NCBI RefSeq assembly: GCF_035594765.1
Contig: NC_085842.1
Coordinates: forward strand, 320,601,359-320,665,358
Reading direction: 5' to 3'
Length of the DNA: 64,000 nucleotides
Source of the DNA: Anolis carolinensis
Taxonomy: Eukaryota
Position 1 is the stretch's first letter, and every line of letters starts with the position of its first letter. The notes under the pieces were generated by a model. It searched no databases. It was not told the DNA's origin and saw only the letters and a program-made list of their open reading frames with translations. Position numbers and translations under genes: made by a program. Shown in pieces: positions 10,143 through 64,000 of the stretch.

Positions 10143-11296
10143 CTACGAGGCACAATTAAAAATAAGAATGACTCTGCTAACAAGCGTACTCCACTCCACT
10201 TAGTACAAACACTTATGGGCAACAACCTATCAGATTCAACTTGTCATCTGACCAGCTTCCCAGGAGCCTTCAATAACCCCAAGAATGGCACAATTTGGGG
10301 CATTAGTATACAGAGTTTGACATCTAAGGATCCAAATTATTGTGCTCACTTTCCTGCAGCAGTCTTGTACTTGCTTCCCCTTATTGCAGATGAGAGGCCA
10401 AGGCTTATAGAAAACCGTTTGCCAAAGGCAAGTTTTAAACTTACTGCTTTACAGCAAACAAGGTGTAAATACTTAAGAACACAGGTTAGAGGAATCACAT
10501 TTGAACTTCCCTGAAATCATGGATAGCTGGACACCCACCCCTTTTCTAAACTTTTTTTTTTTTTGGTTTAAAGTAGCATCCTTGGAAGTTTAGGGAACAA
10601 TTTCACCAAATTGAGATCCTTCCAAGCTATATTGGGTCCAGGAAAAGCTACAGGAATTTGATTAATTTGGTGCAAGAAGACAAAAACATGTGACAAAGTT
10701 GGACCCTCATCTCCTTGGACAGAACTCCTCAGGGTGATGGACCATAGCCCAACCCCTGAACCAGTGTCTTGCCACACCTGGAGTGATTCTAAGCAGGGGA
10801 AATAACCTTTGTTGCCAATGGACACAAAAATGGTGCCTGTTCTTGGAACACGGGGAAATACTGCCAGTCTTGCACATCGATAGCTGAAGATGTAGCTCTT
10901 TTGTAGATCAACGTTTGAATCCCTGCTCAGCCATGAAAACCCACTGGGTGGCTGAGCAAGTCACGCTGTCACTCAGCCTCAGAGTGAGGCAAAGGCAAAC
11001 CCTCTGAAAAATCTTTCCAAGAAAACCCTGTAATATGTTTGCCGTAAGTCAAAAATAACTTGAAGGCCACAGCAACAGTAATTTTAGCCAAAATGTTGGG
11101 ATGCTGAGAGCTGCAAAATGCCCTTGAAACTGCAGGTGTGTCTCCCGGCTTTGTGTCACCACTTTTTCATTAAAAAAATCAAGGCACTTTCACCTTTGGG
11201 ACCATTCCACATGTTTCCCACACCTGCCAATCCCTTTAGGAACCCAGTTCTGCCTTGCAAACTGAGTGAGGACAAAGGGAAACCAAGAATGCTCAC

Positions 11297-13414
11297 CTTC
11301 CCAATGCTTCTTTACTCTGGAGTGCCATTTCCTCGCTGCTGAACATCAATGTAAATGCCTCTTCTGAACAGTCAGGGTCCCCTTTCCTGAATGCCAAACT
11401 GGATGGCAGGGGAATGCCTTCCTTAGAGGGCTTTTTGCTTCCTGCATGATCAGAGATGGGCAATGGGATGAAAGGCTTTCCCACCATGTCGGGATGTTTG
11501 ACTTGTGCGCCTGGCTTGGTGCTGTCCTCTTCCCCCAAGATGAAACAGGCCAAGGAGCCAGTCCTAGCTGCTTCCGTGTCGGCATCATATTGTGGACTGG
11601 TCACATAGTCACTGAACTGGAGGTTACTAAGAAGCAGAGGGTCCTCCTCGCCCTTCCTCTCTGAGCCTGGAGAGAGAAGATCCGCCAGGCCTGTGGCTCC
11701 AGAGGGATATTTATGAAAAACAGAGCTCTCAAGTTCATTTAAGGCTGATTCCACTCCGAAGGCAGGAGACGTCTTCTGCAGATTAAGGTGAGACTGTGAG
11801 AGCCACCTGGACCTGGCTGGTGGAGAAGCTCCTGGACCAGCTGCTCTCCAGTGATCCATTTCCTGCCTGATGGATGGAGGGGATGTTTGGTTTCCGAAGA
11901 ACCTCCTGGGGTCTTCATCCCATCGCTTTCTGGGCTGGGAGGGCTTCTTTTCCCACTGTGCCTCCTGTTCCTGGCGCTGCTTCTTTCTTTGCCCCTGTAC
12001 GGACTGGCCTTCTGGACTATCAGGGTCGAGGAGGGACACTGTCAAGGGAGCCGTCTCTCCAGCAAAGTCCCCTGAACAACTCAGAGCCTCATCAAGGTCT
12101 GTTCCTTTGTGGGGGTACTTTTTCCTGCCAGTCTCTGACACAGGAGCATGTTTACCTTGAAGAGATTCTTCTTTCAGGCCATCCGCTATGGGGCTTGCAG
12201 ATGCCAACAGGTGGGCAAATGGACTTTGCATTGCATTTTCTACAACAGAGAAGCACTTGTCGGGACAGGTTAGAGGTAGATCTGAACATCTGGGCTTCTT
12301 TGGACTGAGCAGGGTTTCTTTGCTTTTGCTGTTACATACAACACTGTCATCCTGCGAGCAGTAAGGTTTTTCGGGCGTATCATTCTTCAGAGAGGAACTG
12401 AGTGCTGCAGATGCCTCTGTGCTCCACTCCGACTGATTCCTACAGTCTTCCTTGCAGATGGCAGAATCCTCCATCCCTGACCAAGCTTCTCTCCTTTGAT
12501 CCTCAAGCTCAGGCTGTTTGGAAAAGAGTTCTTGTCCAGCTTGGACTTCCTGGCCTTCGGCTTCATGCTCTCTCCGGTGGAGGAAGAACGAACCCTGGCT
12601 GCATTCCCGTTTAGCTTGCACCTCGACTTTCCTGGTGCTCGGACCGGGGGAGAAGGAGTCCTCGCTGAAGTCACTGTCGTCCAGGTCTTCCAGCTGCATT
12701 GTCTCATCGCAGTCCGGAGGGGAGAGAGGGGTCGGGGCGGGGGCCTCCTCTCTCACCCGTACCTCCTGGGGCTTGTACTGGGCTAAAAACCTCTCCAGAG
12801 GCTGGTAGCTCAGCTTCTGCTGCAGGATCGGAGGCTGCTGGAACTGCTGGTGATAAAGGCGGAGGTGCTGCTCCCGGTCTCTCTGGTGTGGAGGGGGCTC
12901 TGCCCAGGCCGCCTTGCACTGCTCCATAAAGAGCCTCCCTCCTTCCTCCGCAGGGGCCACCGAGGGCCGGTTGGTGTCGCCGAGGGAAAAGTCCTCTCTA
13001 GACACCAGTTGCTTCTGCACAGGCTGCACTTTCAGGCACTTGACCCCTGCGCTCCTGGACACAAAGTCCTTCCCAAACGGGTTCTTCTCAAAAGGCAGAG
13101 ATGGATCCTCGGGTGCCTTCTTGGCCGGTGCTCCTGCCCTTGGGGTGCTGCAGCTATGCCAATCCTGAGTGCCCAAATGCCCTTTGCGGGCCTGTCCTTT
13201 TGGGACAGAAGAGAAAGGAAACTGCCCTGGTGAAGCCTTGGACTTGGACAAGGTGGGGTGCTGAAGCCCCAGCTTTACTTTCTTTGGTGAGTTCTTCTCA
13301 CCGCTTTGTGCGCAAGGAGAGCTCTGGATGCGTTTGGGAGACACGTTTGCCGTCGCCCGGCGCCTGTTCACAAGTGGGGTGCAGCACTTCATGCCCCTCT
13401 TCAGCTCCTTCACC
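11297..13414 (-). CDS. KIF24: KIF24 coding exon 10 (2118-nt exon, disordered tail)
   Basis: 706-aa ORF starting RVKELK; contains HLRLYHQQFQQPPILQQKLSYQPL; donor AG|gtgagc. Confidence 0.92.
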
Positions 13415-13634
13415 CTGCAAGTAAAGAAGAGAAAAGAGTGTGGGTGTTAACTTGTATTGTGCTCATTTGAAAGGTTTCTAGACTGCGTTGTAGGGCACGG
13501 GCTTCTAAAGGAGACTTACAGAAAAAGAAGAAAATTCTAATAAAATGCAACCAAAGTCAAAACAGCAGTTGATATACTTCCAAGGCCAGAACAACCTTCA
13601 TAACCATTTAAACAGATAGTATCTTCCCAGTTAT

Positions 13635-27500: not shown

Positions 27501-27798
27501 CAAATAGTTTGTGTAGTTCTTCTACATAATTTGGAATAATTTAAACATTATTTACAGCAAGCATGGGCAAACTTCGGCCTTTCCTCCAGGTGTTTTGGAC
27601 TTCAACATGCCTGGTTCACAGGCTGCTACATGAACTTTAATAAATATATTCTAGACAGAAAACTGAGTTAGCACACCAAAACATTGCATACTTCTTCAAA
27701 AATGTTATCATTTTCTGATGCCAAGAAGCTTTCGCTCTGATCAACTCGATTTGATTTACAGTCTTTGTTTCAAAAGACATGTTCTCAGATTTAAGTAC

Positions 27799-28014
27799 CT
27801 TTTCCTTCCATTGAGCAGGTCATAAAGCTGCCCGCAGTAGATCTCGTAAAAGCTGATCCAGACATGAAGGTCTTTCCTGGTGTGTGATTTTTCCAATTGC
27901 CTAAAGATATCTTTAGCTGCCAGGGCATAGAGTCCTGGGTTTTGGTGAGTGCCAATCATTGTGTAGGTTTTGCCAGCCCCCGTCTGCCCGTATGCAAAGC
28001 AAGTGGCATTGCCG
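27799..28014 (-). CDS. KIF24: KIF24 coding exon 4 (P-loop)
   Basis: [17 protein letters not shown]...[15 protein letters not shown]. Confidence 0.96.
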
Positions 28015-28256
28015 CTGCAACAGAACAGAGAGAAGTATCTTTGAAAACCTTTACCCATTAAAAATATAGGATAAAACATACATTATTATCTGTTTTAAAA
28101 CATAACACTCATAAAATAACCGACCTGCCAAGAAAAATGTGGAATGGGCTTTGAGAAAAGTTCACAAGGAAGAAGGGTGAGCAGAGTGAAGAAGTGCATG
28201 AACAGTGCAAATGTTAAAAGGGTTTCCAGCCAATGCATCATGCAGTGATGCCCTAC

Positions 28257-31483: not shown

Positions 31484-31693
31484 CTGCAGAACAAGGGACA
31501 TCAACATGCAGTTAGAAAACTGTTACTCCACAAATTAAACCATACAAAGCAAATGCATGTGAAATTATCTCTGGTTTCAGATTTTTAAAATAAAGTATTT
31601 GTTAAATTTGACCCATTTTCTATGTACATGTGGGAGAGAATTACATCACTAATGTTCTTTGTATGCAAAGGATTTCAAAGACATTGTTGTTAC

Positions 31694-32292
31694 CTGGTAC
31701 AAGAATGTGGCACTCCGTAATTATAACCAGAAACATGAGCTATTCTTTGGACAAAGGGGGCTTCAATCTCCCCTGAAAGAGGGGCAATATCACTCGATGA
31801 GCTGATAACTGGAACACCCACTTTGTATTCTGTCCACATTGAAGACTCTTTCCTGGGTCTTTTGTACTCAGCTTGATGACTGCTCAACACAGCAGCTAAA
31901 TCCTCTTTATCTTCACTCCCAAAGCAACTAGATAATGCACACGGTCCAGGTTCAAGATCTTTCCTTCCATCTCCTTCGTCTGGCAGGGAATCAAAGTGGA
32001 GTTGTCTCCGGGGGCCAGACCTAGACACTTGTGGCTGAAGGCGGACAGCACCGGCCTGGAAACCCGTCTGCTTTCTCCCTGCTGTTGCTTCTTCTGCCTG
32101 CAACATTCTGATGATTCGAATGAGCTGGAAAAGACGCTTGCGGTCCTTCATGTTGTGTACCCCCAGTTTGGCATAATCTTTCATGGAGACCTTGGCAAGT
32201 TCATCGATCCTCTGATAACCAAGGGCAGTAAAATGGGGGTAATATTTTTCAAGTTCTGCCTCACACAGGCATTCGTACAAACATGAGGCCAT
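31694..32292 (-). CDS. KIF24: KIF24 coding exon 1 (SAM domain)
   Basis: Acceptor at 32307-8, ATG at 32292; MASCLYECLCEAELEKYYPHFTALGYQRIDELAK...; donor AG|gtaac, phase 2. Confidence 0.95.
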
Positions 32293-35200
32293 CTTCAACT
32301 CAAAGTCTGATAGACAAATAAATAAGACAAAAGAGGGAAAACTTTGTTAAAAAGCATATTTTTCACAATGCATATACTCCGTCAAGCACTGCTGCCACTG
32401 AACTTCCATTTCATACTGCTAACAGGCTTATTCGTTGAAGGTATTCTAGGAGCAGTGCTTAAAAGACCAAGCCCCATCCAGGATAATTCCTACTATGCAG
32501 TCCGCACCCACTCTGCCCAAAGCTATGCCTGTAAATAGCTCAAAGGGCTCCAGAATTCCAGGATAATATTCCAAGTGGCTTGGACTCTTCATTACTACCC
32601 CATGAAACAATATATTAAATACTGAAAATAAGACACCACAGCATGACTCTGGTCATAATCTTATACAGTGGGAATAAATATCAATGAGTAAGGAAGATAC
32701 TATTAAGCACACTTTAATATGATTGTTCCTGTACAGAACCAGGGACTTAAAGAAGTTGAGGTTCAAATCCCTACTCAACCATGCCTTTGAGGCAGTTACT
32801 CCTCCTAGAAGAACAAGAGCTTTCAGATACTTTTCAGTGAGCAAAAGCTGGAGGGAATTTGAAGCTGAAACTTTCTGGATCCGTTATTACTTCCCTTTGA
32901 CTTCACAGGTTACAGCACGCTCTCTTTTTACTACAACTATTTCTACATATTTTGCTAAATTTGGAAAACATCTTATGTATCCAATACAGTAGAAACAGAT
33001 CAATGTGTCACAAGACATTTTGTTTCATTTTCTTTTCCTTCATAGGCTAACATGGGCAACCCTTCTGACAACTGCATTACACTGTTTCTTCTGAAAATTT
33101 AACACACTTAGAATTGCTGGCTCTGTTTCTATTTGTTTGGATTCATATTTCTGATTTTCTGCTTTTTATTGTTAGATTTTAATAGTTCTGAAGTTGTTCT
33201 TTTTAAATTGTATCAGCATGGTTTTCTGATTACTGTTTTGAGTTTTGATATACAGAAATCTTAATAAATACATTAAAGCTGTAGTTAAATTGGTTTATTT
33301 ATTTATTTACAGTATTTATATTCCACTCTTCTCACCCCGAAGGGGACTCACATTACACATATAAGGCAAACATTCAATGCCTTGACATAGAACAAAGACA
33401 AAGACAAACACAGACTCTGAGCTAGCCTCGAACTCATGACCTCTTGGTCAGTGTGATTGGTCGCAGCTGGCTGCAGCTGGCTGCTCACCAGCTTGCGCTA
33501 CAGCTCGGGCAGACCAAGCATAGGCAAACTTCAGTCCTCCAGGTGTTTTGGACTTCAACTCCCAGAATCCCTAGCAGTGTACCAGCTGTTAGGAATTGTG
33601 GGAGTTGAAGTCCAAACAATTGCTAAAGTTTGCTCATGCCTGATTTAGATTGTCACTGTTTTCATCTAGCCATTGAAAAGGTTAAGCAATGAGTCTCCCA
33701 GGAGCTTAGTAGCTCATGGGCATAGCTGGTACAATATTGTTTTATTTGGACTTTGTGATATAAAAGAATACCGAGAAAAGAGAAGTGACTTGTGTGGACG
33801 ATGGCTATGTCAGTGTTTGCAGTGGTGCGCATCCCATTACATTTCCGACACCATAAATATATATGCCTTCAAAATCATGCTTGTAGATCACCCAGGTAAA
33901 AGGAATAGGTCCCCACAACCCGCAAGCCACCTGTTAAACCAATATTCTTAAAGAAGGGAGAACAGGTAGCACTTCACCCATTTCACAGAAAAGAAGAAGT
34001 TGGTCTTTGTTTATCCAACCAGGAAGAGCCTGCAATTTCATTGCTTAAATTGTCATTCACAAAAAAATGTGCATGTCAGAAAAATAGTCAATCAACCAAG
34101 GGAGACTAAAAAATCACAGCAAACAACAAAGTAATGCAGATAGTATGTACTTAAAATGCACTCACTTACTGGTATCTCCCACCTTCTTCCACTTGTAAAG
34201 TCTATGTAACAAGTGGCTCAAGCTGCAGACACACACCACACCAGCTAGCTAGAGAAAGCAACAGGCCTAAATTTAGATCTGCCTCTTTCAGGCTAGTCAC
34301 AGCCCCCCAAAGCTCTCTATAGCTATGATCAGAGGCTGTGAAATAGATAGATTGCACCACAATGGGAAATACAAAGGCGTGGTTGCATGTATTAATAGAT
34401 AAGGTAAGCTGCTGGAATCTGGAGCATGATATTACTTCTTTTAAATACATAGACTTCAGTGATCCTTAAGGTAAAGCATGTGAGGGATCAGCAGGGTCAC
34501 CCTCTTCAAAAAGACCCCAGTACAGTTCTGGGCTGCATCAACAGAAGTATAGTAGAAATATAGGCATTTTTCAGGGGGGCTGTAGTTGTGCATTTCTGCA
34601 TGGCAGGAGATTGCACTAAATGATCCTTGGGGTCCCCTTCCATCTCTATGATTCTATGAACTTTTCCTCCCAAATACAAGGAAAGTACAGCAGGGTTTTC
34701 CCCTTCAAGGCCCACATTGCTGCCTCCTTTGCCACCTGCTGGTACACATAGGAGGCACTAACAATTTGCTTATTTCAATATGTGTTAAAGCCACATAGTT
34801 TGATAATATATCAATGAGACAATGATATCAATAGTTATACAAAACAGAGACTCAGTGTTCAAATCTGCAAAAGTTTCATACTTTCACTAAAGAGTATCAG
34901 TTCCTCCAGATAAAGAGTCCTGAAGCAAAGCAGGATTCCCAAGAAATGGGTTCATAAGGTATGATGGCAGAACGGCTGGGGATCTGGGAGGAATTTGTCA
35001 CTCATATTTAAACTTCGTCTCGAACAGCAGCAGCTGTTGCATTTGCATGTGCATGCATGAACTAAGAGATCACAGAGTAGAATAAAAAAGTCTAATTGAA
35101 TGGCTGGCTGGTCCTGCTGGTTCAAATCATCTAGTTTTTCAGTTACATGCTCAATTCAACACACACTAGTTTATACTTTCAAGTCTTTTCATTCAACGCA

Positions 35201-43034: not shown

Positions 43035-43899
43035 TGTGATGACTCATGGGCCTTGTAGTCCTGTTCCTAGTACTATTGTGGCAGACGAAGAGGAAAACAT
43101 GGGATTTTCGCCGGTTCGGCCAGAGCCGGAGCCTCTTCACCTGCAGGATGTTGATATTTGCCCACAAGAATCTAGCCAAACAAGCCTTGGACAGAACTCC
43201 CCCCGTTTTCCCGGAGGGACAATTATACCAAAGATAGGGGAGTCAGGGAGGCTAATCGCAGAAGCCTGAGAATCGCTGCCAAACAAATGGCTGATTAGGC
43301 CTGCTTCCCTTGGGAAATTCTAAGGAGTCATGCATCTGGACAGAGTTGGGTTTCGCTTCTCGTTCTCTAGGGAAAGAATTCTGTTGGCGGGAAAACGAGA
43401 CCCAATATAGGTGTTTCGCGCAAGGGAGACTTTGCGGAGTCAATTGATCAGCTTGAGGAGAGAGATCGTGTGTGGACTTCGTAATCCCAGTTCCTTGCTT
43501 CCCGGATCAAGTTTCAAGCCTTGCCTTTGTCTCATGTTTTTACCACGGACTATGTTTCATGCTTCATGTTCATCTTGCCTCCAGTCAAGGATCTAGTCGA
43601 GAATCAAGTTTATTCAGCCTTGTTGTCAAGCTTCATTGGACTTTAAAGACTCTGTTATTTCCCCACACTATTGCTTGGCAAAGTGTGTGTTTCGGTCAAG
43701 TGGATTAAAACTTTGAACTCTAATATCTTATATTGGACAATACATTTCTTGACTATATTTGACCTTATCTGAAAGGTCTGCTTCTGAACTATATTCTTCA
43801 CTTGTTTTTATTGATTTTATATATTTCTTTAATAAAGATATTAGATAGATTCTGGCCTCTGTGTAAGGTTATTGGTGCCCTGCAGCCTGGGTCCTGACA
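43035..43899 (+). mobile_element. Solo LTR (second family) in the NUDT2 5' intron
   Basis: TGTGA...TGACA termini; 5-bp TSD GATTG (43030-34, 43900-04); AATAAA at 43831. Confidence 0.88.
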
Positions 43900-45708: not shown

Positions 45709-46185
<477 letters not shown>

Positions 46186-56304: not shown

Positions 56305-57533
56305 CTAGGAAGAAAGATGCCAAGAGGTGGTCATCAACATTTCTTCTGGCTATAAAAGATGCAGGGATCAGTGTGTCAGCGAACATCCAAGTACAGAAAT
56401 GAAGTGGCCATGTTGGCTGGTTTAACTATACACTACAACTCTCATATCCATGGGACCCTTATCTGCGGTTTCATTTATCCACATATGACAAAACAACCTT
56501 TCTATGTATTTTCTAGGTTCTCCGGTGTGACTCTGTCTATGCCATGGAATTCTAAAGTCATGCATCCTTCATTGCAAAAGGGTTTGTTATTAACTGTGGT
56601 TTCACAAAGTAATGAGAGGTCGGGCAATGCATCCCTTGCAGATATGGGGGTGGTCCTGTATTCTGGTGTAATTTGTATTGCAAATTGCCAGGCATTCCTT
56701 GCTGGGAGGAACATATAGGATGGGTGACACCTGGCTTGGAAACAGTCTATGCGAAAGGGATCTAATAGACCATGAGCTGAACATGAGTCAAGAGTGTGAT
56801 GCGACAGCTCAAAAAGTCAATGCAATTCTAGGCTTTGTCCGTAGGATTGAGGGAAGTTCTAGTTCTAGGCTGTTTTCTTCTACTCTAAAGACAAAGAGTC
56901 AATCAATTCAAACTGCCAGAAAGAGATTCCACTTAAACATTAGGAAGAACCTCCTGACAACAACAGCTATTTGCCAGTGAGATATACTTTCTCTGAGTTT
57001 GGTGAAGTCTCCTTCTTTGTTGCAGGTGCTTGGATTGCATGCTCCTGCATGGCCGAATGGGGTTGGATTGGATGGCCTCTGTAGTCATAGAATCATAGAA
57101 TCATAGAATAGTAGAGTTGGAAGAGACCTCATGGGCCATCCAGTCCAACCCCCTGCCAAGAAGCAGGAAATCGCATTCAAAGCACTAGTCTTCTCCAATC
57201 CTGTGATTTTGTGACGTCACATTAAGGAGGGGAGCAGCTTGATTTCTGTGCATAGAAACTAGGGCACAATGGATCAATGGGTTCAAATTGCAGGAAAAGA
57301 GATTCCACCTCAATATTAGGAAGAACCCATAAGGGTAAATGCTTTCACACTGGAATATGTTACTGACTGGGAGTCTGATGGCACCTCCTTCTCTGGAGGT
57401 TTTTAAGCAGAGGCTGGATGGTATTTGGATTGGATCTTCCTGTATGACAGAAGGGGGTTGGACTGGATGGCCCTTGGGTTATCTTCCAACTCCTGCAATT
57501 CTATGATTCTATATGATTAAAATGGAAATATAC

Positions 57534-58010
57534 TTTCTGGGACCCACTCCAGGGGGTCTAGAGATTCCTCCACTTGATCTCCAAATCCAGGATCCATCAC
57601 GTCTGGTTCTCCAGCACAGACTATCTTGTCAGTGAGCGTCTTCCACCTGCTGAACTTGTCCTTCTCTTTGGACAGGAAGGCCTTGTGCCCACCAGGTTTG
57701 GTGGTGAGGTGGAGGCCAGAGCCTTGCAGGGTGAGGTGTCCCTTTTGGCTGCAGGCCCAGCCCTGGGGTGACCCTTCTTCTTCGCAGGCCGCTAGCTGTG
57801 CCAAGGCAAACTCTTCTGGGTGGGAGACCGACAGGCATTGCTTGGTTGCGAGGCTGACCACGGCCTTCACAGCCAGGTTCCAGCGCCATTGATGGTGGAG
57901 GGAATGGGGCTTGCATTCGGAGAGGCCCACTTGGTCAACCGCGTGGGGGAAGACGTGGATGCACTTCCCCAGCCGGGAGTTTTTGATGAGGAAACTCTCT
58001 CCTCCCGATG
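57534..58010 (-). CDS. Ricin-B (beta-trefoil, mannose-receptor CysR-like) domain exon
   Basis: SFLIKNSRLGKCIH...ECK...HQWRW...QCLSV...AC...QGWAC...RWK...VC; symmetric phase-1 exon of 477 nt. Confidence 0.85.
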
Positions 58011-60038
58011 CTGAAGGGAATAAGACAACAACAACAACATTCAATGTGCTTCTAATTTGATACCAGGCATCATCTTACCCCTTTCATGACCCGTTTCTTC
58101 TAGTAACACATGTCTTGAGGATGATTTTTCCCTAATTCATATAACTCCACCACTTAATCAACATAAACCTTGTGTCTCTGTATTCATGGTTATGCTTGTA
58201 CATTTGGTGCCAACTGTACTTGTATCCTTTTGGATTGGATTGCTAATTAACCTCTGTGGCTGCTTTCACCTGGTGAGTGTGTTGTTCATCAGTTGGGAAC
58301 TTTGGGCTTTAGCATAAATGCTCACCAGGCATGGACCCTCCTTATCCACAATCCTAGTCTGAATTCACCCTCATATCTACATCTGCAACATCTCCTGACC
58401 CTCCACTAGCCCTCCTTAATAGCCAGCAACTGCCTTGGGAAGAGGAGGGTTTTTTAGCTGCTGTTGGAAGTCAAAGGAGGAGGATGTTTCCATCCACATC
58501 CCTCCAGCAAGCCACGAATTAGGATCTTCCCTCAGCCTCAGGTTTTGGCCCCCTAAAAATAGGACATTGTTCATGTGCAGCAGGGACCCAATCCTTCCTT
58601 GTGTGCTTTAGAAAACAGGGTGTTCCCCACCCCTTCTCTTTGCTTCATAATAAGTCCAAAACTCTATAGAGAGCTTCCTGTTCCTTTGGACATGAAGTAC
58701 AATACCTTTAATAAGGTGCCACAAAAAAACCCCAAAGATCAGCCTGGCTGTGTCAAAGGAACTTGGCTGGGAAATGAGCATACAATAGATGAAAAGCTTT
58801 CACTGTTTCCTTACAGGAAGATCCCAATAAGTATTTGGTTTTTGCAAGAAGGGGATCTCTCAACGTGAGCTGAGCACTGAACGGGGCCAGAGAAAAGCAA
58901 ACAATGCAATCCTGTTTAAGCTTCTACACCAAGCCTGGGCAAACTTCGGCCCTCCAGGTGTTTTGGACTTCAACTCCCACAATCCCTAACAGCCAGTACA
59001 CCTGAAGTCCAAAACACCTGGAGGGCTGAAGTTTGCCCATGCCTGGTAAATTAGGATACAGTAAAAACTACAGAAAGTCAACACTTTCTGTAAGAAAGCT
59101 GCGTAATCCTTTAACCAGTTAAACCCCTGGCTGCAGCTCTTGTACCAAGTGACATTTCTAAGCCTTCAAAACCATCCCCACATAGTTCCTTACAGTTATC
59201 CCAATGGGAATGAACTCAATATGTCCCGGTGGCCAGGTAAGGCAGGTCCCCAAAGAGGCTGAGAAGGTGCACAAGTTAGACGGGTGCAGGGGCGGCTAAA
59301 CCTATACACAAAGTACGCAAATGCGGAAGGCGCCAATCCCCTGGGGGCGCTATTGAGGTGCCCGGTTCAGTGCCCAGAGAGAGAGAGAGAGGTGGGCAAA
59401 CAAAACTTCTAGGAAACAGCAACGCGCCCCGGGTTTCTTTAAACCGGGCCTTTGCCGGAGGGAGGAAACTCTTCCCTCTGGTAAAGGCCCGGGACTTTGG
59501 GGACATCTCCATGGCTCCCTTCTTCCACTCTCACTTCATTTGGAGGTGGGGGACAAAATACTGTTTGCTTACACTTGAAAATTGCCTAGGGCCGGCCCTG
59601 GACGGGTGCAAAAGCAGTCCTTGTTGGAAATGCAGCAGTGAAGCGAAAAGTGGGTAGGAGTAATAGGGTTAGATAGTTAGACCTCTGTTTAGCTATTGTG
59701 ACTCCTCTGTGATACAAACGGATGCTCTTTGGGATGCTTCTCCACCTCTTCTGCTTCCCACGAATCTTGACCTTTCAAGTTGTAGCTAGGTCGGGTCAGG
59801 CCTCTTGAGTAACTTTCCTGTCTTAGAACAGAGTTCCTACAGTAAAGCTTCGTAGTTCCCTTTCTCCAAGCCAATGGCATGTTAAATCAAGATCTCTAAC
59901 TCAAAAGGGAAAACCTACTCTGTCAAAATAATGCAATTTTCACCACTTTACCTCACCATGGCTAAATGTTATGGAATCATAAGCGTTGCAGATTGGCACA
60001 GCACCAGCACTCTGGCAGAGAAGGCTAAAGACTTAATA

Positions 60039-61611: not shown

Positions 61612-62479
61612 TGTGTCCCTCCCAGCAAAGAAAACCAGGAGCAAAGGACAGGGAGAGAGAACAAGGAGTTTTCTTTTGTAAAGAGCAAATTGGATTGCAG
61701 AGGGGAAGCTGCTTCAGTTTGCGTCCGTCCGGAAACGGGCTGGAAGGGAAAGAAGAAAAGATGCTAAGAGACAAACAAATGCCATAAGAAAACAAGGGTC
61801 CCTCTACCCAACAGATGCTAGTGCTCAAAGCGACAATGAGCTGCGGATCCACAAAGGAGAGACTCAGGGACATGCAATTTGCATCTCTCAGAACAAAATG
61901 TGACATTGCCCAGAGACGCCTGTCCTTGCCTTACCTCCCGATAGTAAAAAGCAGCGAAAGCTTTGGAGCCACACAGAGTTCTTCTTTGGGAAGGAAGGCC
62001 CCACCTTCCTAACTATGTGTCTGGAGAGGGATGCTCAATATAAATATTCTGAAACTTTAGGACAAAGGAAGGACCCCCCCCCCCTCTTTGGAAGCAGAGC
62101 TTTCTGAAGGGTGGCAGAGAATACTAAAGAGCTTGAGGGAGGGGAACATGCCTGAAAACTGGAAGAGAGCCAAGGTATCCATTATAAAGGCAAACAAAGG
62201 AGGAGTGGAGGCACAAAGTCGCCCAAAGTAGGAAGCTCATCGTTTGCTGCCGATCCTGATAATCCACATTGCACTGCTGGTGCTTGAATGTGTAGCTGAA
62301 AGCTATTGACTCTGGCCTATGGCCATCTATCTAAAGGGATGTCCTGTGCAAGGTGCAGCAAATTTATTTTCTGCTGCTTCAGACAAATCCAGAATTTCCA
62401 AAGTTTTTGAGTAGAGGTGACAATCATGAATCAGATCACAGGAATTAAAAAACTTGGGACTGCGCTTTGAATCAATACA

Positions 62480-63740
62480 GTGAAGCAAGGCCAAATCCAT
62501 ATACTTGATCAAAGTTATATCCAGAACTTGAGAACAAAACAGAGGATCTTCTTTGTTTCCGACTCTTCATGACCTCATGGACCAGTCCACGCCAGAGCTC
62601 CCTGTCGGCCGTTGCCACCTCCAGTTCCTTCAAGTTCATACCAGTCACTTCAAGGATAACGTCCATCCATCTCGCCCTTGGTCGGCCTCTCTTCCTTTTT
62701 CCTTCCTTCCCAGCATCATGATCTTTTCCAAGCTTTCCTGTCTTCTCATGATGTGGCAAAGGACTTCATCTTTGCCTCTAATCTCCTTCCCTCCAGTGAG
62801 CAGCCAGGTATTATTTTCTAGAGGATGGACTGGTTGGATCTTCTTGCAGTCCAAGGCATGCTCAGGATTTTTCTCCAGCACCAAAGTTCAAAAGCATCTA
62901 TCTTCCTTCGCTCAGCCTTCCTTATGGTCCAGCTCTCGCATCCATAGGTTGCTATGGGGAACACCACTGCTTTCACTATGCGGAACTTCATTGCCAGTGT
63001 GATGTCTCTGCTCTTCACTGTTTTGTCAAGGTTGGCCATTGCTCTCCTCCCAAGAAGGAAACGTCTTCTTATTTCCTTGCTGCAGTCTGCATTTACAGTC
63101 ATCTTCATACCTAGAAATATAATGTCTGTCACTCTCTCCACGTTTTCTCCCTCTATTTGCCAGTCATCAATCAGTCATCAATCAGAGGATAAACCAGACC
63201 AAAAACCATGAAGACAGGAACAGGAATTAATATGCAGGAACTTGAAACATAAACAAACAAACATGAACAAGACCCAAGATCCAGAAACTTGAACACTTAA
63301 AGCAAGGCCATAGAACTTCAGAGTTGTTCCAACTTGAAATGCAATGTTATTCTCACAAAGAGCAGTCTGCTTGGAGCCCGCTTAAAAGCCTCAATTCCTT
63401 CCCATAACATAATTTCTCATACACCTGGTTCTTCACTGCTTATCTCAAAGCCACTGGGAAAAGCGAGTCTGTCTCTCTTTCACATTCTCTCAGCACAGCT
63501 GCAGCTGCTCTGACCTAGTAACAGACTCACACTACCCCACATTCCTCTCAGGAGCAAACTGTGGCAGATTCTCATGGGAACAGATTTCACTTTCTCTAAC
63601 ATCCTGTGAACTACCGGGATGTTCACTAACAAATCTCTCCATGCCACTTCCATTCTCCATTCCCCCAAACCCCCTCCTGAGACCCCACAAAATCCCCTTC
63701 CTCATCCTCTGAAGCATCAGATTCTTCACAAACCACAACA
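62480..63740 (-). mobile_element. Decayed LTR (third family), interrupted by an RTE LINE; 3' end unresolved
   Basis: Begins TGTTGTG at 63740, exactly where the L1 zinc-knuckle coding stops; acidic U3 frame; LTR-like T-rich 3' part continues across the RTE insertion. Confidence 0.6.
62548..63182 (-). mobile_element. 5'-truncated RTE/BovB-clade LINE
   Basis: DCSKEIRRR...YGCESWT...IDAFELWCWRKIL..PWTARRSNQSIL, then GKRKRGRPRARWMD; flanked by CAGAGGAT repeats (62540-47, 63183-90). Confidence 0.9.
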
Positions 63741-64000
63741 AAGTCCAGCACATATGATAAAATGTTCCAGTTGTTGTCTTACATTTCAAGCATAATTTCG
63801 ATTTTTTATTTATCTTTGAGAGTTTTTCTGGAGTTTTGTACCACCTGGAGATCGTTTTGTAAACATTTTCTTTAACTGAGTAACATTTTGTAAATTGAAA
63901 TCTTTTCTTCCAGAATTCTTCCCATTATTCTACTAAGTGTATTGCTTGCCCTATGTTTTTTGCCAATTGGATCATGGAGTCTTTTATTTGTTCATCAATT
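63741..64000 (-). mobile_element. L1-clade LINE ORF2 C-terminal fragment
   Basis: ...RWYKTPEKLSKI...CLKCKTTTGTFYHMCWT zinc-knuckle region. Confidence 0.75.

Follow-up and report, generated by a model that had tools for sequence, protein, structure and literature searches.

A dead chromovirus-type solo LTR of Anolis carolinensis probably carries the decayed tail of an integrase in its U3

The DNA analysed here (the window) is a 64,000-nt stretch of Anolis carolinensis. Close to its end, on the minus strand, lies an old Ty3/Gypsy chromovirus-type solo LTR, referred to below as the 63740 LTR, with its copies as the 63740 family. Its 5′ part, the U3, starts with TGT at 63740 and covers 63180..63740, and the rest of the LTR is found past an inserted LINE at 62381..62547 on the same strand. 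The LINE is a later, 5′-truncated insertion (62548..63179, minus strand) that splits the LTR and that we take to be RTE/BovB-like. The copy ends at 62381, the final ~130 bases of the ~840-bp LTR being absent. The flank upstream of the LTR (63741..64000, minus strand) resembles the 3′ end of a LINE ORF2, presumably of the L1 type; neither the inserted LINE nor this flank had a match in Pfam, and the two LINE labels are unconfirmed. No polypurine tract was found in the flank, which therefore does not represent the internal region of the element.

The window contains two further LTRs, both on the plus strand, and the DNA similarity of the 63740 LTR to them is negligible. The first (20184-21231) is a very young solo LTR with a GGATA duplication; full elements of this family, as at L092:2113-5757, have a chromodomain-less Pol and a U3-encoded tail with a JPO2-like helix-acidic-FxGF motif. 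The second (43035-43899) is a solo LTR of the chromodomain lineage with a GATTG duplication, an acidic NMGF start and a frame that is broken before RRSLRI. Host exons are present at 11293-13446, 27756-28082, 31690-32346, 45709-46185, and 57517-58074; from their translations, we assume them to be kinesin/SAM-like (KIF24), Nudix (NUDT2-like), UBA-domain, and ricin-lectin-like pieces.

A DNA search with the 63740 LTR, in which 40 of 345 candidates were scored, returned 39 copies besides itself at 80-87% identity. When one naturally open copy was used for a protein search (150 scored of 817), a sister subfamily of the 63740 family was exposed at ~43-54% amino-acid identity. The 63740 family was represented by 51 distinct copies, 30 of them two-ended, seven 5′-truncated, and 14 with no 3′ end detected in the locus. 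The termini of the two-ended copies were nearly all TGT...ACA, and 24 of the 30 carried a 5-bp target duplication (13 perfect, 11 with one mismatch), scored in these other copies as the 3′ end of the 63740 copy itself is lost. Divergence from the commonest letter per column in the family was 8.6% at non-CpG columns and reached 37.7% at those of CpG type, and the 63740 copy itself differed by 5.6% at non-CpG sites. The best 40 matches of the LTR at 20184 were all 100% identical, and the 63740 family is therefore old by comparison. The 63740 element is thus a real, old solo LTR, as the original prediction had claimed on both counts.

Read on the minus strand from 63739, i.e., from LTR base 2, the sequence gives VVVCEESDASEDEEGDFVGS, exactly as had been described. 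This acidic beginning of the base-2 frame ends in FVGS (63680..63739). After a break, another frame continues as GMENGSG...ERNVG, passes two stops and reaches ...KERQTRFSQWL, a stop, DKQ and a stop, again as first read. The break had been ascribed to a frameshift in G-runs. It coincides instead with a tandem 7-nt repeat at 63649..63662, which no other copy has: the stretch measures 52 nt in the 63740 copy, the modal length being 45 nt (14 of 29 copies). Slippage in G-runs was rejected as the cause of the break. Four in-frame stops of the 63740 copy, at 63534, 63492, 63447, and 63435, lie within 63433..63534. They are common to 1, 5, 15, and 11 of 41 other copies, respectively, and to none of the sister copies, in agreement with the earlier view that they are not ancestral.

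The base-2 frame had been proposed to be once coding, and the comparison of many copies bears this out. A stop in most copies occurred at none of the 109 codon columns of this frame in the 63740 family and at none of 108 in the sister subfamily; the first such shared stop follows after 113 and 115 codons, respectively. The other two forward frames had 12 and 1 shared-stop columns in the 63740 family and 9 and 3 in the sister subfamily, and the reverse frames had 1-4. The sole indel between the two subfamilies is 3 nt long, and the modal lengths of all segments from LTR base 2 to the arginine motif discussed below are multiples of three. It could be argued that the open frame is a by-product of the purine-rich composition of the LTR and was never translated. 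Indeed, frame 3 and the reverse frames are also stop-poor, and the excess of third-position differences between the subfamilies was not significant (31/97 vs. 46/200, p = 0.12). On the other hand, the same frame has stayed open in both subfamilies over ~26% divergence, its one indel preserves the frame, and in one sister copy, L110, it is in register with Pol at base 2. We therefore regard an origin by composition as very unlikely.

Two motifs had been predicted for the encoded protein, an N-terminal acidic FxGF and a C-terminal RxSxRL. Both were counted in 41 other copies of the 63740 family and 31 sister copies that cover most of the first 480 bases, some of which were drawn from the protein search that favours open frames. 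FxGF was found in 0 of 42 copies of the 63740 family and in 0 of 31 copies of the sister subfamily. The Ser of FVGS had been interpreted as a decayed Phe, but it occupies a non-CpG column in which 35 of 41 other copies have Ser and only one has Phe. Ser is thus the family state, which was the very result named beforehand as speaking against an ancestral motif, and the beginning of the frame is therefore not an FxGF motif. In the sister subfamily, the columns of F, G, and F hold Ala, Ile, and Asp.

The arginine motif fared better. Its site (63448..63465, minus strand) reads RFSQWL in the 63740 copy and shows CpG-type scatter between copies. The complete RxSxR[LI] was present in 3 of 42 copies of the 63740 family and 3 of 31 sister copies, and SQR[LI] in 11 of 42 and 14 of 31, respectively. 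The second Arg column contained R in 15, W in 13, and Q in 10 of 41 copies of the 63740 family; in the sister subfamily, 22 of 31 copies have R. This R/W/Q scatter is as expected of a methylated CpG, so that the derivation of the site from RxSxRL by CpG decay, proposed at the outset, agrees with the copies. The residue before the Ser is Phe in the 63740 copy and in most natural copies, and the R-S-x-R pair is absent; a basic cluster follows the motif in natural copies. Accordingly, the many-copy check that had been suggested for the base-2 frame yielded the open frame with the RxSxRL site but Ser in place of the last Phe of FVGF.

What the frame encoded is suggested by L110, the LTR of which is 65% identical in DNA to the 63740 LTR over 501 columns. 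Upstream of it, a GPY/F stretch of integrase (65% identical to L166 across 49 aa) is followed by the terminal part of a chromodomain (58% over 26 aa), and these pieces run in frame through a purine tract into base 2 of the LTR. L110 is itself frameshifted, most of its chromodomain is deleted, and no target duplication was detected at its ends. The same arrangement is intact in young relatives. The 20184 family includes a full young element, L092, whose 1214-aa Pol passes the purine tract and terminates 138 codons into the 3′ LTR, also in the base-2 frame; this Pol comprises protease, RT, RNase H, integrase, and SH3 domains, with no match to Chromo. The order PR-RT-RH-IN was present in L092, P0006, and P0008. 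A search with the integrase/chromodomain stretch of L110 identified 28 further loci, and most of those numbered L145-L172 show a chromodomain, the junction, and a tail of 85-105 aa that contains an acidic N-[ML]-G-F motif and ends in RRS[LA]R[IL]. In 14 intact elements, the tails are fast-evolving (dN 0.35), and their median dN/dS was 0.34 vs. 0.16 in the integrase/chromodomain part, based on the 82 of 91 pairs whose dS exceeded 0.15, the pairs not being independent. In the young relatives, the LTR-encoded Pol tail is thus shown to be under constraint.

Given that, in one sister copy and many young relatives, the Pol frame of chromoviruses continues past the polypurine tract into the 3′ LTR, we conclude that the 63740 element is a dead chromovirus-type solo LTR whose first ~113 codons are very probably the decayed, disordered C-terminal tail of Pol (integrase); the stretch that likely once coded for it is the first 330 bases of the LTR. 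The frame is hence most likely the continuation of Pol and not the free-standing U3 protein that had been envisaged. In the 63740 subfamily itself, searching by pattern for a primer-binding site downstream of the LTR gave one solo copy, and searching for a purine tract ahead of it gave nothing. In the sister subfamily, the same searches returned only the L110 junction and four loci without integrase sequence. A tblastn search of 116 loci for internal sequence matched only the L110 locus, and a DNA search with the internal piece of L110 retrieved only its own tandem duplicate. With no internal sequence found for the 63740 subfamily, read-through there is deduced from one sister locus. With no Pol upstream of it, as in a solo or 5′ LTR, the frame would decay neutrally, fastest at CpG sites, which would account for the stops and the change of Arg to Trp or Gln. 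The lineage of the 63740 LTR was presumably the chromodomain-bearing one, with tails ending in a basic RxSxR[LI], and the tail may have been a disordered arm of the integrase that helped to choose the integration target.

Profile comparison of the old tail with the young tails detected no homology (probabilities of 0.15 and 0.24), and the tails of the three LTRs in the window likewise showed no profile homology. For the tail of the 63740 family nothing was found in Pfam, in a library of 1.84 billion proteins, or in the PDB, and a homologue search with the old tail gave one gene-model fragment. Among database proteins, the nearest ones are Gypsy entries of UniRef that bear the label Anolis carolinensis. 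Two lizard gene models in UniRef, P0014 and P0009 (transportin-3 and a cation ATPase), contain segments of these retrotransposon peptides, either as gene-model artefacts or by exonisation. At G000:C1:100251357-100262242, three identical LTRs of the young 20184 family are spaced ~5.18 kb apart and likely represent a tandem element.

To follow the two motifs, 37 distinct junction loci were compared, including near-copies picked by the queries; they therefore stand for two or few lineages and not for 37 events. At the 28 junctions with chromodomain traces, RxSxR[LI] was present in 19 and the acidic N-[ML]-G-F in 23, and FxGF was found in none of the open tails, the one match (L179) lying beyond a stop. 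The nine chromodomain-less junctions, three of which are decayed or doubtful (L184, L189, L194), had FxGF in six, twice in three of them, and RxSxR[LI] in none. The 3′ LTR junctions with two tandem FxGF motifs in the tail are L181, L190, and L192. In an unrooted tree of 66 SH3 columns (39 of 40 rows, all of them from our own loci), the seven chromodomain-less rows were set apart at 100/100, with L110 on the chromodomain side of this branch; the tree is otherwise unresolved. A third related family is without FxGF. A further abundant LTR family (L195-L214; 150 scored of 9049) has a similar acidic tail, and neither FxGF nor RxSxR[LI] was seen in the eight copies read.

These data also bear on the original proposal that an acidic FxGF and RxSxRL were once united in a single ancestral U3 protein, with both decayed in the 63740 LTR. 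The 63740 family and the young chromodomain families are similar in the spacing of acidic start and basic end, the tails of the young families have an acidic N-[ML]-G-F together with RxSxR[LI], and the sole stretch that hhalign paired between tails is the arginine motif. However, strict versions of both motifs occur together in none of the open tails of the 37 loci, the lineage with FxGF lies beyond the 100/100 branch, and the residues at the supposed FxGF site, the prevailing Ser and the Ala, Ile, and Asp of the sister subfamily, do not fit. A common ancestor with both motifs is thus hardly tenable, and for the 63740 family it is already largely refuted.

The tails were also compared with known chromatin-binding motifs. 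In the RRSAR of HMGN, two arginines around Ser (R-S-x-R) grip the acidic patch of the nucleosome, according to a recent preprint (bioRxiv 10.1101/2025.01.06.631586). The RRS[LA]R[IL] end of the young chromodomain tails matches this R-S-x-R anchor pair as it is given there for HMGN/Dsup. By analogy, the most likely role of RxSxR[LI] in the chromodomain lineage might be that of an extra grip on chromatin, an HMGN-like arginine contact on the nucleosome, although we consider this possible rather than probable. The tail could also be a plain extension of Pol, with a basic end that functions in nuclear import or in DNA binding, or that lacks a specific partner, and a likeness to HMGN that is due to chance. 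To this we give nearly an even chance: a basic cluster comes after the motif, the tails evolve fast, and for the old tail neither a protein family nor a structure was matched. In addition, the 63740 family has Phe before the Ser and thus lacks a counterpart of one anchor arginine, so the young RRSxRI tails fit HMGN better. Against a mere basic patch, RRSxR[IL] is retained in 14 of 14 intact young tails despite the changing length of the linker, which suggests a specific constraint. For the old 63740 family, a nuclear-import or plain basic patch appears as likely as an HMGN-like grip.

FxGF brings to mind another partner. The TND-interacting motif (TIM), defined as a helix, an acidic linker, and FxGF, is carried by all known LEDGF/HRP2 partners, according to PMC9987994. 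The linker is 8-16 aa long and acidic and follows a short hydrophobic helix. Only the chromodomain-less lineage is similar to the TIM/IBM of partners such as JPO2, with a helix-like hydrophobic stretch, an acidic linker, and FxGF. For a 40-aa piece of the L092 tail, the top PDB match was the LEDGF IBD-JPO2 M1 fusion 6EMO (E = 0.092), and the 120-aa tail of L181 with its double motif did not match 6EMO at E up to 10. The 63740 LTR differs in that the second Phe is absent; it has the acidic run, preceded inside the LTR by only three valines, and a PDB search with the old-tail profile matched no TIM structure. By analogy with JPO2, the chromodomain-less lineage may use FxGF to hitch onto active genes.

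Precedents for such tails exist in plants. In the CRM and some Reina chromoviruses, Pol extends into the 3′ LTR, and in CRM the LTR-encoded part is described as a putative targeting domain (PMC3059260, PMC3605345). The lizard elements resemble plant CRM of group A, with its CR motif, and Bingo of the Reina clade in that the Pol ORF likewise passes the polypurine tract into the 3′ LTR. They differ from them in that the lizard tail is acidic and of low complexity with short linear motifs, and in that it is located after a type I-like chromodomain or takes the place of the chromodomain. With the vertebrate Sushi-type chromoviruses (Ty3/Gypsy, Metaviridae), the clade to which we assume the lizard elements to belong, they share PR-RT-RH-IN, Tf2-like SH3 and Chromo domains, and 5-bp duplications. 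The TGT...ACA ends of Sushi LTRs, given in the main text of PMC3601003, are also found in the lizard elements. Unlike the Sushi-type elements, the lizard elements have a tail of 85-140 aa inside U3, and one lineage is chromodomain-less. A term search of that main text found neither 'reading frame' nor 'ORF' (PMC3601003), and our searches of the open-access literature listed no paper on such tails in lizards or fish. The 63740 copy is an ordinary decayed solo LTR, and the wider pattern of tails and motifs is a variant of a known design, the LTR-encoded Pol tail.

Tentatively, and with less confidence than in the arginine contact, the U3 of lizard chromoviruses could be viewed as a swappable targeting cassette fused to the integrase, which would combine a chromodomain with an HMGN-like grip in one lineage. 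In the other, the FxGF lineage, the chromodomain would have been lost and one or two JPO2-like TIMs acquired, and mimicry of host LEDGF/HRP2 partners would steer its integration into transcribed chromatin. The 63740 LTR would be a fossil of the type with chromodomain and nucleosome grip. If this is true, a retrotransposon would have arrived at the tether of lentiviruses through a short motif of host type and not through the integrase core.

LTRs that are spread by the thousand through the lizard genome thus carry the coding end of an integrase, and two chromatin-type motifs alternate with the presence or absence of the chromodomain. Very young copies are available for mapping insertion preference. 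If binding holds, these elements would provide a natural and testable case of a retrotransposon switching its integration targeting.
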